A DNA stretch of 64,000 nucleotides from an uncultured Pelagibacteraceae bacterium (GTDB lineage Bacteria; Pseudomonadota; Alphaproteobacteria; Pelagibacterales; Pelagibacteraceae), in assembly GCA_902515985.1 (NCBI GenBank), contig CABXWY010000002.1, positions 91,448-155,447 on the forward strand, in the 5' to 3' direction. Of the stretch, positions 37,757-50,809 are shown piece by piece. Under the pieces are notes generated by a model. It saw only the letters and a list, made by a program, of their open reading frames with translations. It ran no database searches and had not been told where the DNA came from. Positions within the stretch are counted from its first letter, which is position 1, and each line of letters starts with the position of its first letter. The position numbers and the translations under genes were made by a program.

Positions 37757-39871
37757 ATGTCCCAAGAAATAGTAGACGTCCTAAAAAATAATATTGACAC
37801 CTTGTGGGTAATTGATTGTGCAATTTTAGTTTTTATTATGCAAGCAGGTTTTATGTGTATGGAAACCGGTTTATCTAGATATAAAAATAGTATCAATGTT
37901 GCATTGAAAAATGCGGCAGACTTTGGTGTTTCTGTAGTTATCTTTTGGATTTTCGGATTTGGTATTATGTTTGGTACCTCTTACAACGGTTTTTTTGGTA
38001 CCGATTTATTTTTCTTTAAAACAGAAAAAGCGGAATACATGACTTATTTTGTTTTCCAAGCAATGTTTGTTGCAACTGCTGCAACAATTATCTCTGGTGC
38101 AGTTGCAGAAAGAATGAAATTTAATGGATATTTGATTATGACAGTTTTAGCTACTGGAGTAATATATCCTATTGTTGGCCATTGGGCTTGGTCTTCAAGT
38201 TATCTTACTGGTTCAGTTAAATCTTCAGGTTGGTTGTCAGATATAGGATTTGTAGATTTTGCTGGGAGTACAATTGTACATTCCGTGGGAGGATGGATTG
38301 CCTTAGCAGCAGTTATTATATTGGGGCCAAGAATTGGTAAATATTCAGAGGCAAATAAAGGCAAGTTTACTGGATCTAGTTTTCCTTTGGCGGTTTTGGG
38401 AACACTTATTTTATGGTTTGGTTGGTTTGGTTTTAATGGAGGAAGCAATGGGGCAATGGATGAGGCAGTACCATTAATTTTAATTAATACATTTTTAGCA
38501 GCAGCATTTGGTTTATTAACAGGTTTAACTATTTCATATTTTAAATATAAGAAACCTGATCCTTTTTATATTATTTTAGGTCCATTAGCAGGATTGGTTG
38601 CAATTACAGCTGGATGTAATTCAATGTCATCAGTAATTTCAATTTTTGTCGGAATAATAGGTTCAATAATTGCTATCATTGTAAATGAAACTTTGAATAA
38701 GTTTGAAATTGATGATGTTGTAGGTGCAGTTCCAGTTCATTTAGCTGCAGGTATTTGGGGAACTTTAGCTGTTGGTTTATTCTCAGATTTAACAATTTTA
38801 GATACTGGGTTAGACAGATTTTCACAAATTAAAATCCAATTAATTGGTATAACATCAATCGGTTTATTTACGTTTATTTCATCTTATTTTGTTTTGAGTA
38901 TAGTAAATAAATTTTATCCTCTACGGGTAAGTCCTGTACAAGAGGAGTTAGGGCTAAATATTGCTGAGCACAATGCAGTTTCAGTTGAGCATGATTTAAT
39001 TTCGATTTTAGACAAGCAGTCTGAGTCAGGAGATCTCAAAATTAGAGGACCTCAAGATCCATTTACTGCAGGTGGAGTAATTGGTCTTTATTATAACAAG
39101 TTAATGAGTAAGCTAGAGACAAGTGAAGAAGAGAAAAATAAGTGGCGTGCGAGAATATCCAAAGAAGTTAAGTTAGCAGTGAAGGTTCAAGAAAACTTTT
39201 TGCCAAAAAGAAATTTAAAAAATTATCCTGTAAAAGGTATAAATATAGCTGCCAGAGAGGTTTCAGGAGATTTTTTTAGTTTTTATCCTCATAACGATAA
39301 TGTTTATTTCATTATTGCAGATGTAGCTGGCAAAGGAATACATGCAGGAATGGTTATGGCTAAAGCGTCAACTTTATTTGAAATATTGGCTAGAGATAAA
39401 GTTGATGTAGATGAAATTGCATTTCATATGAACAATGATTTATTTTATACTAAAACGAGTGGAATGTTTGTAACTTCAATCATTGGAAATTATAATATTA
39501 CTACTGGTGAAATAGTATGGGTAAACGCTGGTCACCAACCCGCGTTAGTAAGAGATAAAAATGGAAATTTTGAAGAATATGAAAGTAAATCTCCTCCACT
39601 AGGTGTGATTGTGCAAAAAGCAAAATCAAGTTATTCTATTAATAGAATTAATTTAAATAGTAACAGACTTTATGCATTTACAGATGGATTGTCTGAAAGT
39701 TTAGACGAAAATAATGAAGAAATCGGTATCGAAGGTTCAAAAAAAGTAATTAATAATAATTTTAGTAATAATATTAATGATGAATTAAATAATATTACAA
39801 AAGAAGTTACTACTTCTTCTAAAATTGATAAATTAAGTGATGATTTAACTATAGTTGTTATAGGTAAATAA
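37757..39871 (+). CDS. Ammonium transporter fused to C-terminal SpoIIE/PP2C phosphatase
   Basis: Amt motifs FQAMF, AERM, DFAGSTIVH, WFGWFGFN, DDVVGAVPVH; PP2C motifs SGDFF, ADVAGKG, NAGH, TDGLSE, DDLT. Confidence 0.9.
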   Translation: MSQEIVDVLKNNIDTLWVIDCAILVFIMQAGFMCMETGLSRYKNSINVALKNAADFGVSVVIFWIFGFGIMFGTSYNGFFGTDLFFFKTEKAEYMTYFVFQAMFVATAATIISGAVAERMKFNGYLIMTVLATGVIYPIVGHWAWSSSYLTGSVKSSGWLSDIGFVDFAGSTIVHSVGGWIALAAVIILGPRIGKYSEANKGKFTGSSFPLAVLGTLILWFGWFGFNGGSNGAMDEAVPLILINTFLAAAFGLLTGLTISYFKYKKPDPFYIILGPLAGLVAITAGCNSMSSVISIFVGIIGSIIAIIVNETLNKFEIDDVVGAVPVHLAAGIWGTLAVGLFSDLTILDTGLDRFSQIKIQLIGITSIGLFTFISSYFVLSIVNKFYPLRVSPVQEELGLNIAEHNAVSVEHDLISILDKQSESGDLKIRGPQDPFTAGGVIGLYYNKLMSKLETSEEEKNKWRARISKEVKLAVKVQENFLPKRNLKNYPVKGINIAAREVSGDFFSFYPHNDNVYFIIADVAGKGIHAGMVMAKASTLFEILARDKVDVDEIAFHMNNDLFYTKTSGMFVTSIIGNYNITTGEIVWVNAGHQPALVRDKNGNFEEYESKSPPLGVIVQKAKSSYSINRINLNSNRLYAFTDGLSESLDENNEEIGIEGSKKVINNNFSNNINDELNNITKEVTTSSKIDKLSDDLTIVVIGK

Positions 39872-39877
39872 ATGTTT

Positions 39878-41155
39878 TTAGGCTTTTATTTTGGGTAGAG
39901 AATAAAAGTCAGCTGTATCAATTTTAGACGAATGTTCTCTTCTCATATTCCATTTTTTATAAACACCTGCGCTTGCAAGACTTAACGTAGCTCTTCCATA
40001 ACGATAATTAGTATTATCCATTGATCTCATCAATCTATTTATTTTTTCATCTTTTTCAGATGAGAATAAATTTTCTTTTTGATTTTCATTTGATAGCCCT
40101 GTTAACATTACTCCTGCTTTTTGGTATCGACAGCCATGTTTAAAAATATTTTCTAATATTGAAATTGCAGCCTTAACAGTTTCAATACTATTGTTCGTTG
40201 CTATTGGAAAATCAATTGTTTTTGAATTTGAATAGTAGCCAAAATTTCTTTGAAAAGGACTTGTTCTAACAAAAACTGTTATTGCTTTTGCAACTAAATT
40301 TTCTGATCTAATTTTTTCAGATGCATTTAAGCAGTAATTTGCAACTGCCTCTTTTAGTTCTTGAAAATGTTCAACTCTTTTTCCAAATGAACGGGATACA
40401 ACACAACTTTTTCTTTTTGTTTGAGTTGTTTCCAAATCAATACAAGGAATACCTCTAAGCTCCATAGCAGTTCTTGAACTTAAAACATTTGAACATTTTT
40501 TGATCCATGTATTAGATTTATTCTTTAATTGTTTTGCATTATAAACTCCATTTTTCTGATAAAATTTAGTTAACTGTCTTCCAACTCCCCAAATATCATT
40601 TATTTCTATTTTTTCTAATATCGGATCAAGATTTTCGATACCAATTAAGCTTGTAACACCAGATTGTTTTTTCTTTGCAATATGATTTGCAATTTTACTT
40701 AAAGTTTTTGTCTTTGCTATCCCTATGCTTGTTGGTATACCTGTCCATTGCAAAACAGTATTTCTAATTTCTTTTCCAACTTTTTCAACTTCTGTATCAG
40801 AAAAATTCGATAAATCCATAAACGCTTCATCGATCGAATAAACCTCTATTTCTGGATTGAATCTTTTTAGAGTTCTCATAACCCTTCTCGATAAATCACC
40901 ATACAAAGAATAATTTGACGAAAAAACTTGGACATTATTTTTGATAATTATATCTTTTGCTTTAAAATAAGGTTCGCCCATTTTAATACCTAAAGCTTTT
41001 GCCTCGTTAGACCTTGAGATTATACAACCATCATTGTTAGATAAAACAACAACAGGTTTTTTTCTTATTTTTGGGTTAAATAATCTTTCACAAGAAACAT
41101 AGAAAGAATTACAATCTATTAATGCAATTTTTTTAGTATACTGAGTGGATGACAT
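39878..41155 (-). CDS. umuC: Y-family DNA polymerase V subunit UmuC
   Basis: [27 protein letters not shown]. Confidence 0.92.
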
Positions 41156-41528
41156 AAGTTACAACTCCCCAAATAAAAATATCTTCTTCTTCGTTGATTA
41201 AAATTCTATCTTTAAAATCTTTAGATCCTGAGGTTAAAAATTTTTTATCTCTTTCTTGCACAAAGCTTTTAACCACTAATTCGTCATGGACATTTGCAAT
41301 TACAGTTGAGAAATTTCTAGGTGTTAAACTTTTGTCGACAACTAGTATGTCCCCATCATTGATTCCAACATCAATCATTGACTTTCCTTGAACCCTGATC
41401 ACAAAGGTTGCTGGAACATTCTTGATCAAGTGAACGTTCAGATCTATATCTTCCTCTATGTAATCAGTTGCTGGAGATGGAAAACCAGCTCCTGCTTTAT
41501 GTAAATAATAAGGTATGGTCAGCTTCAT
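41133..41528 (-). CDS. umuD: UmuD (S24 autopeptidase)
   Basis: AGFPSPA cleavage site, GKSM Ser, VVK Lys, WGVV; start reset to MKLTIPY. Confidence 0.9.
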
Positions 41529-41535
41529 AATAAAT

Positions 41536-41550
41536 GTTCCTATTTTGTTC
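41536..41550 (-). promoter_or_regulatory. LexA (SOS) box of umuDC
   Basis: GTTC-CTATTTT-GTTC, i.e. alphaproteobacterial GTTC-N7-GTTC; -35 TTGACA at 41577-41582 on the minus strand. Confidence 0.85.
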
Positions 41551-41701
41551 TTATTAGTACAACACTTATTCAATGGTGTCAAATAGGTTGTATTTTGAGT
41601 CTGGAACTGAATCAAAAGTGAATCAAAACGTGAACATCCAAACTACATTTTGTTAGATTGTGGATAACTTGGACAAGGGATAGATTGCTTAGATATAAAT
41701 T

Positions 41702-42073
41702 ATGGAAAAATTGAATTGTCATTGTGGTCAAATCGAAATCGAAGTGAATTTAACTAAAGACTTAAAAGATCTTTACAGATGTAATTGTTCAATGTGTAAA
41801 AGAAAGGGAGCAATAAGTACTGTCATTGATAAAAAAGATTTGAAGGTGATAAAAGGGGAAGAGTTATTAAAATTTTATCAATTTAAGACAAATGTTGCTA
41901 AACATTATTTTTGTACTAATTGTGGAATATACACTCACAATCAAAGAAGAGCAGATCCTAATACATATGGTATAAATGTAGGATGTTTAAATGGAATAAC
42001 AGAAGATGAGTTATTTAAATTTAAAGTAAGAATAAATGATGGACATAACCATATATTAGATAGGAAAAAATAA
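41702..42073 (+). CDS. GFA/CENP-V family protein
   Basis: CHCG, CNCSMC, HYFCTNCGI. Confidence 0.9.
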   Translation: MEKLNCHCGQIEIEVNLTKDLKDLYRCNCSMCKRKGAISTVIDKKDLKVIKGEELLKFYQFKTNVAKHYFCTNCGIYTHNQRRADPNTYGINVGCLNGITEDELFKFKVRINDGHNHILDRKK

Positions 42074-42441
42074 TGATAAAAAAATTAAAATGTCACTGTG
42101 GAAATGTTGAAGCTGAAGTAAATATTCCTGACAATGGAATTGAAAAAATAATGAGATGCAATTGTTCTATCTGTAAAAAAAAGGGATATGTAATTGGAGT
42201 ACTAGGTGAAAATGATTTTAAATTAACTAAAGGAGAAGATTCTTTAAAACTTTACCAATTTTATACAAATACTGCCAAACATTATTTTTGTATGAATTGT
42301 GGAATTCACACACATAATAGACCAAGAATTAATCCGAAAATTTATGGAATAAATGTTGCTTGTATAGATGATATCGATGTTTTTCAATTTAAAGATATTG
42401 CAGTTAATGACGGTCGTAATCATCCTTTAGATAAAAAATAA
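42073..42441 (+). CDS. GFA/CENP-V family protein (tandem paralog)
   Basis: CHCG, CNCSIC, HYFCMNCGI. Confidence 0.9.
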   Translation: MIKKLKCHCGNVEAEVNIPDNGIEKIMRCNCSICKKKGYVIGVLGENDFKLTKGEDSLKLYQFYTNTAKHYFCMNCGIHTHNRPRINPKIYGINVACIDDIDVFQFKDIAVNDGRNHPLDKK

Positions 42442-44780: not shown

Positions 44781-45914
44781 ATGACTAAAAACAACTTAAA
44801 AGTGGTTAAATCCGCAAAAGAAAAAGACACAGAAAGCAAAGAAAAGAATAAAGCTTTAGAAGCTGCAATCAGTCAAATTACAGATAATTTTGGTAAAGGA
44901 TCTGTAATGAAGTTGGGCCAACAAAAAGCAATGGATGTTGAGTCAATTTCAACTGGTTCATTAAGTTTAGACCTAGCTTTAGGAATTGGTGGATTGCCAA
45001 AAGGAAGAATTATTGAAATTTATGGTCCAGAATCTTCTGGAAAAACAACGCTTGCGCTGCAAGTTGTTGCAGAAGCACAAAAAGCAGGTGGTATATGCGG
45101 TTTTGTTGATGCTGAACATGCATTAGACCCAGTTTATGCTAAGAAATTAGGTGTAGATACTGAGGAATTATTGATTTCACAACCAGATACTGGTGAACAA
45201 GCATTAGAAATTACAGATACATTAATAAAATCTGGATCAATGTCAGTTCTAGTAGTTGATTCTGTAGCTGCACTTACACCAAGAGCTGAAATTGAAGGTG
45301 AAATGGGCGATCATCATGTTGGATTACAATCGAGATTGATGAGTCAAGCTCTTAGAAAATTAACGGGATCTATATCTAGAACAAATACGATGGTAATTTT
45401 TATTAATCAAATAAGAATGAAAATTGGTGTTATGTTTGGAAGTCCAGAAACAACTTCTGGAGGAAATGCTCTTAAATTCTATTCATCTGTTAGAATGGAT
45501 ATTAGAAGAATAGGTGCAATTAAAGATAAAGATCAGATCATAGGAAACGCAACAAGAGTAAAAGTTGTTAAAAATAAAGTTGCACCACCTTTTAAAGTAG
45601 TAGAATTCGATCTAATGTATGGCAAAGGAATAAGTAAAACAGGAGAACTTATAGATCTTGGTGCTAAAGCAGAAATAGTTGAAAAGGCTGGCGCATGGTA
45701 TGCTTACAAAGGTGAAAAAATAGGACAAGGAAAAGAAAATGCAAAACTTTACCTTGAGCAAAATCCAAAAGCTGCTGCAGAAATTGAGATGTCTATAAGA
45801 GAAAAAGCAGGCTTAATTTCAAAAAAAATTGAGGGTAACCCAATTGAACAGGAAAAAATACAAGAAAAAGTAAAAGCAGAAGTAAAAGAAGAAACAACTC
45901 CTGAAAAGAATTAA
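44781..45914 (+). CDS. recA: Recombinase RecA
   Basis: [33 protein letters not shown]. Confidence 0.99.
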
Positions 45915-45927
45915 CTTTTAGTTATCT

Positions 45928-45957
45928 AAAAAGGCGCTTATTATGAGCGCCTTTTTT
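45928..45957 (+). terminator. recA terminator (probably bidirectional)
   Basis: AAAAAGGCGCT-TATTATG-AGCGCCTTTTTT. Confidence 0.88.
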
Positions 45958-46016
45958 CCCTTACTATCTCTAGGAATACCAACGCTTATTCAAACAAACT
46001 TACATCAGATCTTTGC

Positions 46017-46049
46017 TTTATCTCCAAAGTCTCTAGTCTGGGCACTAGT
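46017..46049. repeat. 33-bp direct repeat, copy 1
   Basis: TTTATCTCCAAAGTCTCTAGTCTGGGCACTAGT; 31/33 identical to 47928-47960. Confidence 0.9.
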
Positions 46050-46067
46050 CATCCTATAAAATCCTAT

Positions 46068-46100
46068 AACCCAGAACCACGATCCCTAAAATTTTTTCAT
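46068..46100 (-). pseudogene. Frameshifted signal-peptide start remnant (MKKFLGIVVLG if one T is restored)
   Basis: ATGAAAAAATTTTAGGGATCGTGGTTCTGGGTT directly after the stop of 46101..46487; similar to the starts at 47036 and 47887. Confidence 0.75.
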
Positions 46101-46487
46101 TTAATCTGATTTATAGCAATCCCAAGTTAAATTTGAATATTTAAATTCTTCTAATTTGCTAGTAGGCTGAATTGCAGTTTGATAAAGAAAGCCATTTTTA
46201 AAATCAAAAAATCTCATAGTTCTTGAACTATCTAGTACTGGTGCTGAACTCCAAGCATTGTCATTATTGAATTCTATAATTGTATCTTTTTCAAAAACAT
46301 CAAATTTTTTTTTTATAGAATAGTTATACGAAGTTAAATGCTCAATTGTTTTCGCACTATCATTAATCTTGAAAACTAGTTGGAAATCCTTTGTTTCAGA
46401 TTTTAAACAAGTCCAAAGGAAGGTTTTAGCATAAGATTGATTAAAACAAAAAATAGTGAATGTTAAAATTATTAAATATTTTTTCAT
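46101..46487 (-). CDS. Hypothetical secreted protein
   Basis: Signal peptide MKKYLIILTFTIFCFNQSYA; Cys near each end of the mature part. Confidence 0.8.
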   Translation of the reverse strand: MKKYLIILTFTIFCFNQSYAKTFLWTCLKSETKDFQLVFKINDSAKTIEHLTSYNYSIKKKFDVFEKDTIIEFNNDNAWSSAPVLDSSRTMRFFDFKNGFLYQTAIQPTSKLEEFKYSNLTWDCYKSD

Positions 46488-47036
46488 TTATTTAGTTTCT
46501 GTAATTCTTGTTATAGACCAAGGTCCATAAATAGTTTTAAATCCATAGACTACGTTGATTTGTTCAATACTTGATAATTCTGAAAACCATTTATACTTTT
46601 TCAAATCTTCTCTAAGATCAAACATACTGTAATCAACCCTGTCATACCAAATTTGTCCATTGCCTAGGATAAATCCTTTATCAAGACCAACAGGGATACA
46701 TCCTGGTTTAGTGCTTAAAATTTTGCTTCTAAAACTTTCAGTAAATGCTTCATCAAAAGTTTTACCATCAAAAAAACTCATGTTTGGGCCTGATATTAAG
46801 TCATGTTTAATTAATGATAATAATTTTTTTAAGTCTTTATTTTTTACCGCTTCTTGAACTTCTAAACCAAATTTATAAGACTCCTCAGGTACAAAATAAT
46901 TTTTATAAACTTCTTCTACATACGATTTAAGAGTTTGATCAAAACCTTCTGGCTTCATATCATCAGGGCAATTTTCTGCATAGCTAACTTTGAAGAATAA
47001 CAAGCTTAGAAGTACAATCCCTAAAAATTTTTTCAT
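46488..47036 (-). CDS. Hypothetical secreted protein
   Basis: Signal peptide MKKFLGIVLLSLLFFKVSYA; GFILGNGQIWY motif. Confidence 0.8.
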   Translation of the reverse strand: MKKFLGIVLLSLLFFKVSYAENCPDDMKPEGFDQTLKSYVEEVYKNYFVPEESYKFGLEVQEAVKNKDLKKLLSLIKHDLISGPNMSFFDGKTFDEAFTESFRSKILSTKPGCIPVGLDKGFILGNGQIWYDRVDYSMFDLREDLKKYKWFSELSSIEQINVVYGFKTIYGPWSITRITETK

Positions 47037-47887
47037 TATAAAGCCCTTTTTTCCATTTTATTTTTTTGAATTAATTTTAAGTGTTTAATTATTTTAAAAC
47101 TATCATCTAAAACCTTACAATCCCACCAATCCCACCATTTTTTATAGCTAGCTGCATAAAATTTTAAATTTAAATTTTTTCTAGAAATTATCATCTTTTG
47201 CTCAGTGACTTTATATTTATCTGGTTTAGATGTGAGTTTTATTTCTGTTATTTCTGCAACATAATCCATTGTATCAGTTGAAATTTTATAGCTGTAAGGA
47301 CTAAATTCATACAATTTAGCAGTATTTGAATCTAAAAAGTGAAAATAAAAATAGAGTAATTCACTATCTTCTTTATTGCTTAAACACTCTAGTTTAACGT
47401 TTGAAAGATCATTATCTTTCTTTGGTTTTGTTTCATTTGCAATTTTTTGAAACTCTGTATCCCAATAAACCATTCGAGATTTTGGATCTTTTAAAGAATT
47501 AGAGCAAAGAGCATAATATTTTTCATTTAACAATTCAGTTTTAGAGTAATCTCTTCCACCGATATCAAGGAAAGTTTTATATATGTTTTGGATATTTGAT
47601 TGAATATCTTCATTAGATATATTTATCTTAGATGAAAAAAAATACACATTTTTTTCTGCTTCCTCACTTAATATATTCATTTCATTCACAAATGATTTTT
47701 CTTTTTCAGTAAGAGTGTCAACATCTTTTTTTCTTTCAACACCTCTGCTCAGAAATTTATAATAAACTGTACATTTGGAATACTCATCATAAAGTTTCTC
47801 AAATACGTATTGTTGAACGGGTGTGTTTGCATAAGATATATGACAAAATAATAAACTCAGAACGAGGATCCCAAAAAGTTTTTTCAT
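47036..47887 (-). CDS. Hypothetical secreted protein, probably two domains
   Basis: Signal peptide MKKLFGILVLSLLFCHISYA. Confidence 0.8.
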   Translation of the reverse strand: MKKLFGILVLSLLFCHISYANTPVQQYVFEKLYDEYSKCTVYYKFLSRGVERKKDVDTLTEKEKSFVNEMNILSEEAEKNVYFFSSKINISNEDIQSNIQNIYKTFLDIGGRDYSKTELLNEKYYALCSNSLKDPKSRMVYWDTEFQKIANETKPKKDNDLSNVKLECLSNKEDSELLYFYFHFLDSNTAKLYEFSPYSYKISTDTMDYVAEITEIKLTSKPDKYKVTEQKMIISRKNLNLKFYAASYKKWWDWWDCKVLDDSFKIIKHLKLIQKNKMEKRAL

Positions 47888-47927
47888 TACTAAATGTTAT
47901 CAAAAGACTTGAGAATTAACCATCCGA

Positions 47928-47960
47928 TTTATCTCTAAAGTCTCTAGTCTGGACACTAGT
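47928..47960. repeat. 33-bp direct repeat, copy 2
   Basis: TTTATCTCTAAAGTCTCTAGTCTGGACACTAGT. Confidence 0.9.
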
Positions 47961-48025
47961 TTGTTGTTTAATTTGATGAGTCTTTATGTGATTAATTTTT
48001 TATTAATTTTAAATTGTCCGCATAA

Positions 48026-48065
48026 CTAGTGTGAGCTAGTGTGAGCTAGTGTGAGGTAGTGTGTT
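48026..48065. repeat. 10-bp tandem repeat (CTAGTGTGAG x3 plus degenerate 4th)
   Basis: ctagtgtgag ctagtgtgag ctagtgtgag gtagtgtgtt. Confidence 0.92.
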
Positions 48066-48142
48066 CCTCACGTGCATATTTTAAGCGCCTTTTTTCCCTA
48101 CTGTTTACTAGACATCAATTAAAAAAGCTGTATTTTTAAAAT

Positions 48143-50809
48143 ATGGCTGACAAATCATTAAACGAAATAAGAACTGCATTCCTAAAATATTTTGAGAAAA
48201 ATGGTCATTCGATTGTTGACTCGAGCAATCTCGTTCCAAATAACGATCCAACATTAATGTTTGCTAATTCAGGCATGGTTCAGTTTAAAAATGTATTTAC
48301 TGGACTTGAAAAAAGAGATTATAAAAGAGCAACGACTTCTCAAAAATGTGTAAGAGCAGGTGGAAAACATAATGATTTAGAAAATGTAGGCTACACACCA
48401 AGACACCATACATTCTTTGAAATGTTGGGAAATTTTTCTTTTGGAGATTACTTTAAAGAAAGAGCAATTGAACTAGCTTGGAATTTAATTACAAAAGATT
48501 TTGGACTAGATAAGAATAGACTTTATTTCACAGTTTTTAATGAAGATGATGAAGCATTTAATTTATGGAAGAAAATCACCGGTCTTAGCGAAGATAGAAT
48601 TATTAGAATACCAACTTCAGATAACTTCTGGTCAATGGGGGAAACGGGCCCTTGTGGCCCATGTTCTGAGATATTTTATGATCATGGAGATCATCTTCAA
48701 GGAGGTCTTCCTGGCACAAAAGACCAAGACGGTGACAGATATATAGAAATCTGGAATCTAGTTTTCATGCAATACGAACAGATAACAAAAGAAAAAAGAA
48801 TTGATTTACCAAAACCTTCTGTTGATACGGGAATGGGATTAGAAAGAATAGTAGCTTTACTTCAAGGAACGCATGACAATTATAAAACAGATCATTTTAT
48901 AAAATTAATTAACTCAATCTCAGATACAGTAAAAGTAAAACCTTCTGATGAAAACTTATCTAGTTTTAGAGTTATTGCTGATCATTTAAGGGCAAGTTCT
49001 TTTTTATTAGCTGAAGGTGTTCTTCCTTCCAATGAAGGTAGAGGTTATGTCTTAAGACGAATTATGAGAAGAGGCATGAGACACTCGCATCTTCTAGGAG
49101 CAAAGGAACCTATTTTTTATAACATCTTTAAAACTTTAGAAAACGAAATGTCTGGTAATTATCCTGAATTAGAAAGAGCACAATCTTTAATTAAAGAAAC
49201 CTTAAAAATGGAAGAGGAAAAATTCTTAGTTCTTTTAGAAAGAGGTATGAAGATATTAGATGATGAGATTGAAAAGATAGATAAAGTTTTACCTGGTGAA
49301 GTAGCTTTCAAACTTTATGACACTTATGGTTTCCCTTTAGACTTAACAGAGGACATACTTAAAAATAAGTCACTAAGCTTAGATCATGAAAAATTTAAAA
49401 AACTAATGAAAGACAGTAAGGAACTTGCAAAGAAGAATTGGAAAGGATCAGGTGATAGCTCAGTAGATGAAATATGGTTTGGAATTAAAGACAAAATAGG
49501 CTCAACTGAATTTTTAGGTTATGAAACTAATCAGGCAGAAGGAGTAATTTTAAGTTTAATTAAAAATAATAAACAATCTGATAGTTTAAAAGAAGGTGAT
49601 GAGGGTATGGTAATTTTAAACCAAACTCCATTTTATGGTGAGTCTGGAGGACAAGTTGGTGATAATGGAACAATATCTAATGGAAATAATATTTTTAAAG
49701 TTTCAGATGTTCAAAAAAAATTAAGTAACCTATTCGTTCATTACGGAAAAGTCGAAAAAGGAAATTTCAATTTAAAGGATAACGTAGAACTTAAAATTGA
49801 TATTGAAAGAAGAGAAAATGTTAAAGCATATCATTCAGCAACACACTTATTACATGAATCCTTAAGACGGATACTTGGAACTCATGTGATGCAAAAAGGA
49901 TCATTAGTTGCACCTGATAGGTTGCGTTTTGATTTTAGTCACATGAAGCCAATTTCTTCAGATGAAATGGTAAAAATAGATGAATATGTAAATCAAATGG
50001 TGAATAAAAAATCAGAGGTAATTACAAGAATAATGACTCCAAAAGAAGGTATTGCTCATGGTGCATTAGCATTATTTGGTGAAAAATATGGCGAAGAGGT
50101 TAGAGTTGTTTTTATGGGTGAGGAAGAAAACAAATATTTTTCAACTGAACTATGTGGAGGAACACATGTAAAAAATACTATTGATATTGGTAATTTTAAA
50201 GTCGTTAGTCAATCAGCTATAGCAGCGGGTGTTAGAAGAGTTGAAGCTTTAAGAGATAAACAATTAGATGAATTTTTAAAAAATAAAGAAAAACAATCCA
50301 GTCTTTCTGAACAAAAGGATGATGAAACAATTAAAATTTTATCTGAAGAAATTAAAAAACTCGGTGGAATGCTTAATTTAAATAAAGAAAATAAAAAAGA
50401 TTTAATTAAAGAATTAAATAAAGAATTAGAAAAGTTATCAATTAATGAAATTATAAATAATAAATCTAAAAATATCATTAAAGATGAAAAAATTAATGGA
50501 GTATTCATAAGAACGCAAAAAATTGATGGACTACCACCAAAAGAATTAAGAAGATTAATTGATAGTGGGAAAAAAGAAATTGGTGAAGGAATAGTTATCA
50601 TATTTGCAAACAAAGATGATAAGGTAGGTTTAGCTGTAGGCATTACAGACAAATTTAAAAACAAATATGATGCTGTTAAACTTGTTAAAAATGCATCAGA
50701 AATTATTGGAGGCAAAGGCGGCGGAGGAAGACCAGATTTTGCTCAAGCAGGTGGAGTAAATAAAGATAAAATTGATGATGCTTTAGAAAGTTTAAAGACT
50801 TTAATTTAA
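48143..50809 (+). CDS. alaS: Alanine-tRNA ligase
   Basis: [40 protein letters not shown]. Confidence 0.98.

Follow-up and report, generated by a model that had tools for sequence, protein, structure and literature searches.

The stretch of DNA analysed here (the window) comprises 64,000 nucleotides from an uncultured Pelagibacteraceae bacterium. Three minus-strand genes stand in tandem between its recA and alaS genes, and directly behind the last of them the start of a signal peptide is written once more with no gene of its own. This raises the question of whether the sequence that codes for the signal peptide is itself a site at which genes are exchanged, as the initial annotation had suggested.

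The flanking core genes are recA (44781..45914, plus strand; Pfam RecA, E 1e-142) and alaS (48143..50809, plus strand; Pfam tRNA-synt_2c, E 7e-214). The sole ORFs between them are three on the minus strand, of 283, 182 and 128 aa, here called cargo genes A, B and C. No Pfam or NCBIfam family was found for any of the three. Gene A (47036..47887) and gene B (46488..47036, its start overlapping the stop of gene A) begin with a signal-peptide-coding block of 32-38 bp (roughly 35 bases) at the gene start, which we designate SIG. They match its consensus at 28 and 26 of 32 positions, respectively, in agreement with the kinship noted initially between the starts at 47887 and 47036 and the empty one. 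Gene C (46101..46487, minus strand) has a predicted signal peptide and a non-SIG start (MKKYLII...; 17/32). The N-terminal half of gene A is 48% identical to a non-SIG gene in locus L029, where a SIG gene comes next. A public metagenome contig covers the A/B junction with 0 differences, and therefore the array is not an assembly artefact or a chimera.

Two other places in the window are worth recording. Two tandem paralogues of 122-123 aa at 41702-42441, 73% identical across 217 nt, carry Cys-rich motifs, which we take to be GFA-like. A 704-aa ORF at 37757-39871, beside umuDC-like genes at 39878-41615, presumably encodes an ammonium transporter with a fused C-terminal phosphatase-like domain.

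The 2.1-kb island between recA and alaS is an integrative element in the recA terminator. Among 19 loci compared, of which five did not fit the pattern used, 13 of the remaining 14 relatives have the terminator hairpin once and alaS directly behind it. In the window the terminator-like inverted repeat occupies 45926..45961 (plus strand), and its 16-bp 3' arm (45946-45961) is duplicated at the other end of the element (48084..48099, plus strand). A metagenome contig that skips 2138 bases at 48084..48099 represents the empty site. The same terminator holds different cargo in loci L071, L224, L231 and L363. SIG is not the integration site of the island, which entered by a separate att/arm system.

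Read on the minus strand from the alaS side, the interior between the duplications starts with 10-bp repeats, an 18-bp motif and a 33-bp unit; behind the genes it closes with the empty SIG, a 19-bp doubled motif and another copy of the 33-bp unit. The four tandem 10-bp repeats (48024..48063) adjoin the core and, by analogy, are likely excisionase-type binding sites; three similar repeats stand at the equivalent position in the satellite attP of locus L325. The conserved 18-bp motif (47968..47985) marks integrase-less elements. By exact pattern it occurs in 16 of 151 genomes (control 0), and it was found in none of the integrase-bearing left ends examined. The 33-bp unit of the left end, or left-end barcode (47928..47960), appears to be a relic of the first codons of an integrase gene (K-L-x-x-x-L-x-x-x-E-I-K frame) together with arm-type sites. 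The right-end barcode (46017..46049) is 94% identical to it (0 in shuffles) and consists of a 9-bp repeat pair with 12-bp spacing and a conserved tail, probably arm-type integrase sites; its grammar is that of satellite attP arms. The conserved 19-bp doubled motif (46051..46069) stands at the opening of the right end, whether an element has SIG or not. A putative leaderless sigma-70-type promoter lies at 47894..47922, with a -35 at 47917-47922 and a -10 at 47894-47899, 6 nt ahead of the start of gene A. Its position is conserved across many left ends as judged by eye; a consensus scan did not flag it.

Matching ends recur elsewhere. We collected 123 distinct left ends and 74 right ends. The elements use the recA terminator, tRNA-Leu and either end of a conserved 75-aa gene as sites. 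Their repeat pair has over 30 variants, and 42 of 49 complete elements carry the same pair at both ends, compared with 8.2 by shuffling. Of the features of a lambda-type att, the core duplication and the empty sites in relatives were both found, and so were direct-repeat arm sites that match across the core, the latter being putative and seen at the level of sequence. A phage origin of the ends was also considered and rejected: there was no meaningful match in 50,697 phage records, and four IMG/VR scans, including those with the left- and right-end patterns, returned 0.

The survey of ends brought several side observations. The elements in L218, L156, L176, L209, L228 and L032 have shrunk to one barcode copy and no cargo, which is the outcome expected from recombination between two 33-bp repeats. 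L075 and L150 contain hybrid junctions of the reciprocal kind. In L265:5150-8900 (genome G367) islands are nested: inside a tRNA-Ser element lies a tmRNA-type repeat pair, and inside this pair a recA-type attP-like junction with the window's barcode, far from recA. Three elements are stacked at the recA terminator in L363:9150-14300 (genome G171), with eight pilin-like genes that share a near-identical N-terminus, possibly a second coding-sequence handle. The 75-aa gene (L069:8908-9135 and many other loci) encodes three helices, and it is an integration target at its 5' end and, inverted, at its 3' end; its neighbour is presumably yajQ-like. As a recombinase or cofactor it was rejected: no Pfam or NCBIfam family was found for it and its predicted structure amounts to a generic three-helix bundle (best Z 7.7), so we treat it as a target only.

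The likely parents of such elements are satellites with tyrosine integrases of about 560 aa. Genes of this family directly follow the core in L244, L146, L179 and L068. Their products match Arm-DNA-bind_3 (E 1e-4) and Phage_integrase, both below the Pfam cut-off, and a PHROG integrase (E 8e-23). The barcode pair sits in the first codons of these genes, in the same frame as given above. An IMG/VR contig of 9,070 bp includes a whole attP (repeat pair, core, three 10-bp repeats and an integrase start with the same repeat) and also encodes a primase and a RusA-like protein; the search of IMG/VR for the parent satellite gave 1 match. Satellites of similar build occur in genomes G495, G754 and G211, and the G211 element, at tRNA-Leu, has the same barcode as integrase-less elements at that tRNA. 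Loci L325-L328 combine their own integrase and primase/replication genes with ends like those of the window element, in which the ORFs and Pfam matches include no integrase or replication gene. From these sequences we infer that the barcode repeats are arm-type integrase sites. The window island is likely a non-autonomous derivative of a phage satellite. We take its arms to be of the lambda/L5 type and the tandem 10-bp repeats to be excisionase sites.

The integrase family is found in 11 of 401 genomes and has 352 homologues in metagenomes; it was not found in the window's own assembly (G000, 88% complete), and no member was found at the recA site. None of 220 integrases fits the window's barcode, and the overall matching of barcodes to integrases (31) was not significant against a column shuffle (mean 21, maximum 33). 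No SIG was seen in L325-L329 or L337. The integrase elements L237 and L242 each carry SIG. An integrase was near SIG in 2 of 60 loci with the first query set, and corrected queries on all loci added no SIG-only locus.

Other recombinases were also seen. Past the window end, at about 155,600-160,128 of the same contig (G000:C2; L245:5600-10129), there is an element with a 347-aa integrase of another family and three tandem 11-bp repeats ahead of that gene; it starts inside what we take to be a glycine riboswitch. A divergent tyrosine recombinase of about 320 aa (L246:3836-4789) is single in most genomes of the family and often lies near mid-chromosome. It is far below the XerC/XerD cut-offs, and a sister family (4 genomes) has two strong XerC/D-like matches. 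Its motifs are, on our assumption, Cre-like, and it may be a one-enzyme dimer resolvase. Two candidates were rejected: this core recombinase as the SIG enzyme, being present irrespective of SIG, including in genera without SIG matches, and a XerCD/dif or lox-type site within SIG, for which inspection against the consensus gave no matching arms or inverted repeat.

SIG itself is widely spread. Counting occurrences with at most 3 mismatches in 31, we found it in 48 of 121 genomes of the order Pelagibacterales, in 3 of 10 genera (control 0). All exact motif matches belong to Pelagibacteraceae or Pelagibacter records, and the pattern had 1 match in IMG/VR. SIG islands occur at tRNA-Thr, -Leu, -Gly and -Met/Val and at tmRNA, in addition to the barcoded elements. 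The 60 SIG genes picked by protein pattern represent 43 unrelated mature families, and a wider set of 120 genes represents 86. Pfam matches were obtained for 15 of these 86, including polysaccharide and alginate lyases, peptidases, a lectin-like domain and SHOCT proteins.

The block is conserved at the DNA level, including its synonymous sites. Rare codons are near-fixed at Gly6 (35/37; genome frequency 0.07), Ile7 (31/43; 0.09), Val8 (22/26; 0.08), Leu10 (31/42; 0.02) and Leu12 (30/39; 0.12), and agreement at six fourfold-type third positions is 194/216, in a sample of which a part was fetched with the DNA motif and in which related genomes are not independent. No such fixation was seen in 29 other MKK-type genes. 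Conservation in full genes fades across codons 12-20. The initial annotation had proposed a search for tandem arrays and for conservation of nucleotides beyond the protein. Both were seen, and the likeness is not one of amino acids alone, as a simply truncated gene would have led one to expect.

Two further islands in the window's assembly may be mentioned here. On the minus strand of contig C20, a second island at tRNA-Thr has an empty SIG with an ordinary gene behind it. On contig C25 two genes, one of which starts with SIG, are surrounded by three ends of the barcode type.

The remnant reported at 46068-46100 on the minus strand is as it had been described: it directly follows the last stop codon (46101-46103) and lacks one base. 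More exactly, the empty SIG (46070..46100, minus strand) comprises codons 1-11 of the block, is identical to the one-base-deleted family consensus at 31 of 31 positions and is fused to the right end at nt 32. The empty-site pattern was found in 24 of 401 genomes of the genus (27 places) and reversed-pattern controls gave 0, so it is not due to chance. The base deletion was rejected as the cause of emptiness, most empty copies of relatives being intact; these encode a 15-residue peptide that reads into the right end of the element. The proposed rule of N genes with N+1 start motifs does not apply to the window, where the start of gene C (46487) is not a SIG and three genes thus have three copies. 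The N+1 arrangement is common among arrays, not a rule. Nor does a remnant generally end an array: among 56 right ends collected independently of SIG, at least 24 nt of the block is present in 11, a shorter piece in 5 (one probably by chance) and none of it in 40.

Altogether we distinguished 239 SIG copies. Full genes begin with 128 of them, 62 are empty copies joined to a right end, and the other 49 are remnants of another kind; the corresponding numbers in a SIG-only sample of 97 are 59, 10 and 28. The junction of the 62 empty copies lies at nt 32 in 53, and the consensus stops at nt 33-41 in 43 of the 49 other remnants. Junctions at 11, 16-18, 25 and 34-37 nt were also seen.

SIG is a place where gene order changes. 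In 21 of 23 groups of loci with a shared upstream gene the downstream partner is not constant, and in 14 of 15 groups with a shared downstream unit the upstream partner varies. For example, 4 upstream and 4 downstream contexts were found for a 279-aa peptidase-like gene: behind it comes either an empty SIG (with three different barcodes) or one of three different SIG genes, and SIG is next in all 4 complete SIG-headed copies scored. A homologue of gene B lies in a tRNA-Met island of genome G136 (1 of 400 genomes), with 87% amino acid identity over residues 18-182. There the gene begins with a consensus SIG, the second half of its signal peptide differs, both neighbours are new, and the homology stops at the stop codon. 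Two metagenome contigs diverge from the window at 47011, within the signal block of gene B. In general, one upstream gene may precede empty, remnant or different full SIG copies. Bare platforms of promoter, SIG and right end only exist as well (L146/L179, L073), and remnants also sit ahead of ordinary genes in other island types.

A further SIG directly follows 46 of the 120 full genes; in the SIG-only sample this is so for 16 of 57. The distance from stop to start in these 46 cases ranges from -5 to +30 and is -4, -1 or 0 in 26 of them. The overlaps agree with the expectation that incoming payloads are translationally coupled. Many genes behind a remnant retain their own start codon and so gain no export.

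Sequence variants show where the exchanges fall. Variants at nt 1-38 of SIG go with neither flank, being shared in 0-18% of the comparisons that were informative against a background of 1-11%, and those at nt 39-60 track the downstream gene (63-71% versus about 15%), the compared pairs not being independent. This linkage places crossovers within the SIG block without narrowing them to one base. Breakpoints inside the motif had been predicted, and the breaks between genomes do map to SIG, although no single crossover base is resolved.

Breakpoint enrichment at SIG over the controls is moderate. Partners change in 15 of 17 families with SIG versus 57 of 99 without it (p=0.016); the control is imperfect, as it takes in the edges of islands, families that were split and core genes that G000 lacks. 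The first junction control had 0 shared pairs among 38 junctions. Alignment ends fall in SIG in 79 of 507 cases versus 3.4% expected, an unfair control, as ends gather at any gene boundary. Payload tails exchange barcodes without SIG too, which makes the 19-bp right-end motif a second exchange point. A clear mismatch between the two barcodes was seen in 4 elements, and every one of these ends in SIG (4/19 versus 0/30, p=0.018).

We consider it probable that SIG is a short homology handle for gene swaps, within an integrase-less element derived from a satellite. The role of a recombination handle is likely because SIG is shared by unrelated genes and gene order changes there. Its length of 32-38 bp is in line with the shortest pairing lengths given in PMC3945230, which are 31-34 bp for RecA and 23-27 bp for Red-beta. 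Two layers may be envisaged. In the outer one, a satellite integrase of the ~560-aa type would excise and integrate the barcoded island in trans. In the inner one, RecA or a phage annealase would mediate crossover between two SIG copies; satellite derivatives, once induced, would encounter phage annealases. Through a crossover of this kind whole genes would be gained, lost or replaced, or right ends exchanged, with the stop-start coupling preserved and, for SIG-headed genes, the export signal too. The prevalence of the nt-32 junction counts against a handle, since pure homology would give a less sharp position, unless the junction was inherited a single time. It could represent one inherited right-end module that spread through handle crossovers. 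The empty copy in the window is then probably the last handle, inherited in that module, and not a freshly broken fourth gene.

The preference for homology over a site-specific system is due to two observations: no SIG recombinase was found, and the crossovers cannot be pinned to one base. SIG could still be a true site-specific site, at which a dedicated host or satellite recombinase cuts near nt 32-34 and inserts circular cassettes in an integron-like manner. The fixed junction of the empty copies and the narrow range of consensus ends in other remnants would agree with this, as would the near-fixed synonymous sites over three genera, the genes that nearly always have a trailing SIG and the 35-40% of SIG-only copies that are cut within the first ~50 bases (38/97, among them a few frameshifted genes). 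However, SIG has no inverted-repeat core by inspection, the other junction lengths exist, and the linkage of variants never switches sharply at one base. The fading of conservation over codons 12-20 also caps how far the ends of remnants are readable. No candidate recombinase tracks SIG: the ~320-aa enzyme is also present in SIG-free genera, and an integrase is near so few SIG loci. We therefore regard a site-specific SIG as unlikely. A broader form is likewise unlikely in our view. It would be a two-tier, recombinase-free gene library: satellite integrases mobilise barcoded, integrase-less shells in trans, and within these a particular protein cuts the signal-peptide code, which is reserved as the place of crossover. 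If it were true, captured domains would at once be promoter-driven, coupled and exported, an integron of coding sequence that diversifies the cell surface of SAR11, the most abundant bacterium in the ocean. As to the dedicated system initially envisaged, neither a dedicated recombinase nor a restriction of shuffling to SIG junctions was found.

It is also conceivable, though quite unlikely, that SIG has no recombination role: it would be an ancestral start of exported genes, the empty copy would have been truncated once, and shuffling would occur at any gene boundary. One ancestral fusion would account for the fixed nt-32 junction, non-SIG junctions shuffle often, and many alignment ends lie at ordinary gene boundaries. 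But mere inheritance agrees poorly with rare codons kept across genera in front of 86 unrelated families, with the different states of SIG behind one and the same upstream gene, and with the remnants in other island types.

Finally, SIG might be a regulatory DNA or RNA element (a promoter part or a protein-binding site) whose breakpoints are secondary, which we find very unlikely because frame and hydrophobic codons are retained in 128 of 239 copies and no Rfam family reached the threshold, even though SIG nt 21-37 resembles the 17-bp spacer of one left-end promoter type (14/17 by inspection), behind several remnants there is a -10-like hexamer together with a start codon at a distance of 10-17 bases, and one gene is equally spaced behind SIG (L300) or a left-end promoter (L222).

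The homology handle has a counterpart in the lpl cluster of S. aureus, in which a conserved nucleotide block in tandem genes for secreted proteins or lipoproteins was proposed as a site of homologous recombination, so that what evolves as a unit extends from one block to the next and spans two neighbouring genes (Tsuru and Kobayashi 2008, PMC2568036). The same article places recombination in the ssl and spl clusters at the upstream-to-5' region. As lpl is described there, SIG is likewise an intragenic block kept at the nucleotide level between variable flanks, with rearrangement breakpoints at the block and a unit that crosses the gene boundary. Unlike the paralogous lpl genes, the SIG payloads are unrelated (86 families among 120 genes). 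The lpl block is central and confined to one locus, whereas SIG comprises the first 32-38 bp, is carried in arrays by integrative elements at many sites in three genera and has empty terminal copies.

The outer layer resembles the VEIMEs, small Pelagibacter integrative elements with a tyrosine integrase and a primase, about 20% of which are described as having no identified integrase, helper integrases being suggested (PMC9618062, PMC11876622). The parents L325-L328 have a VEIME-like build as far as it is given in these articles; the window element differs in having only ends, a predicted promoter and cargo. We found no description of arm barcodes, of a recA-terminator site or of a signal-coding handle in the two articles. 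Phage satellites are packaged in virions, often as concatemers; in IMG/VR the end patterns of the window element had 0 matches, SIG had 1 and a parent satellite 1. Tycheposons are cargo elements that stack into islands in streamlined marine bacteria (bioRxiv 10.1101/2020.12.28.424599). As presented in that preprint, what defines them is a site-specific integrase of their own at one end together with hallmark genes, and they lie at tRNAs; the window element has neither and lies in a terminator.

The window array is not an integron. Integrons have intI, attI, attC palindromes of about 57-141 bp and a Pc promoter. The array shares with them a predicted upstream promoter, single-gene units on the same strand, variable order and an empty acceptor form. 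In contrast to integrons, there is no adjacent intI, the genes abut or overlap and leave no room for attC hairpins, and the junction lies inside coding sequence, with no fixed crossover seen. The two PF00589 matches of G000 lie elsewhere and are far below the integron-integrase cut-off. With att sites of the lambda/L5 type our elements share an inverted-repeat core flanked by direct-repeat arms, and tandem 10-bp repeats that stand only to one side. Unlike those of lambda/L5, the arms of our elements vary as barcodes, overlap the start codons of the integrase and persist without the integrase. For SAR11 hypervariable regions, attC was reported as not found (PMC2217521).

In the freely accessible articles searched we found no description of the SIG layer. 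Signal peptides are reported for 13.1% of SAR11 flexible genes versus 4.6% of core genes (PMC11796062), and an excess in flexible genes is also reported in a preprint (bioRxiv 10.64898/2026.10.07.757358) that calls the gain of single flexible genes in SAR11 unresolved and mobility genes nearly absent. With a 35-bp handle in about 40% of the sampled genomes, together with att ends and an integrase family, the gain of flexible genes becomes testable with short DNA. One coding sequence would serve both as an export signal and as a point of exchange for unrelated enzymes and binding proteins.
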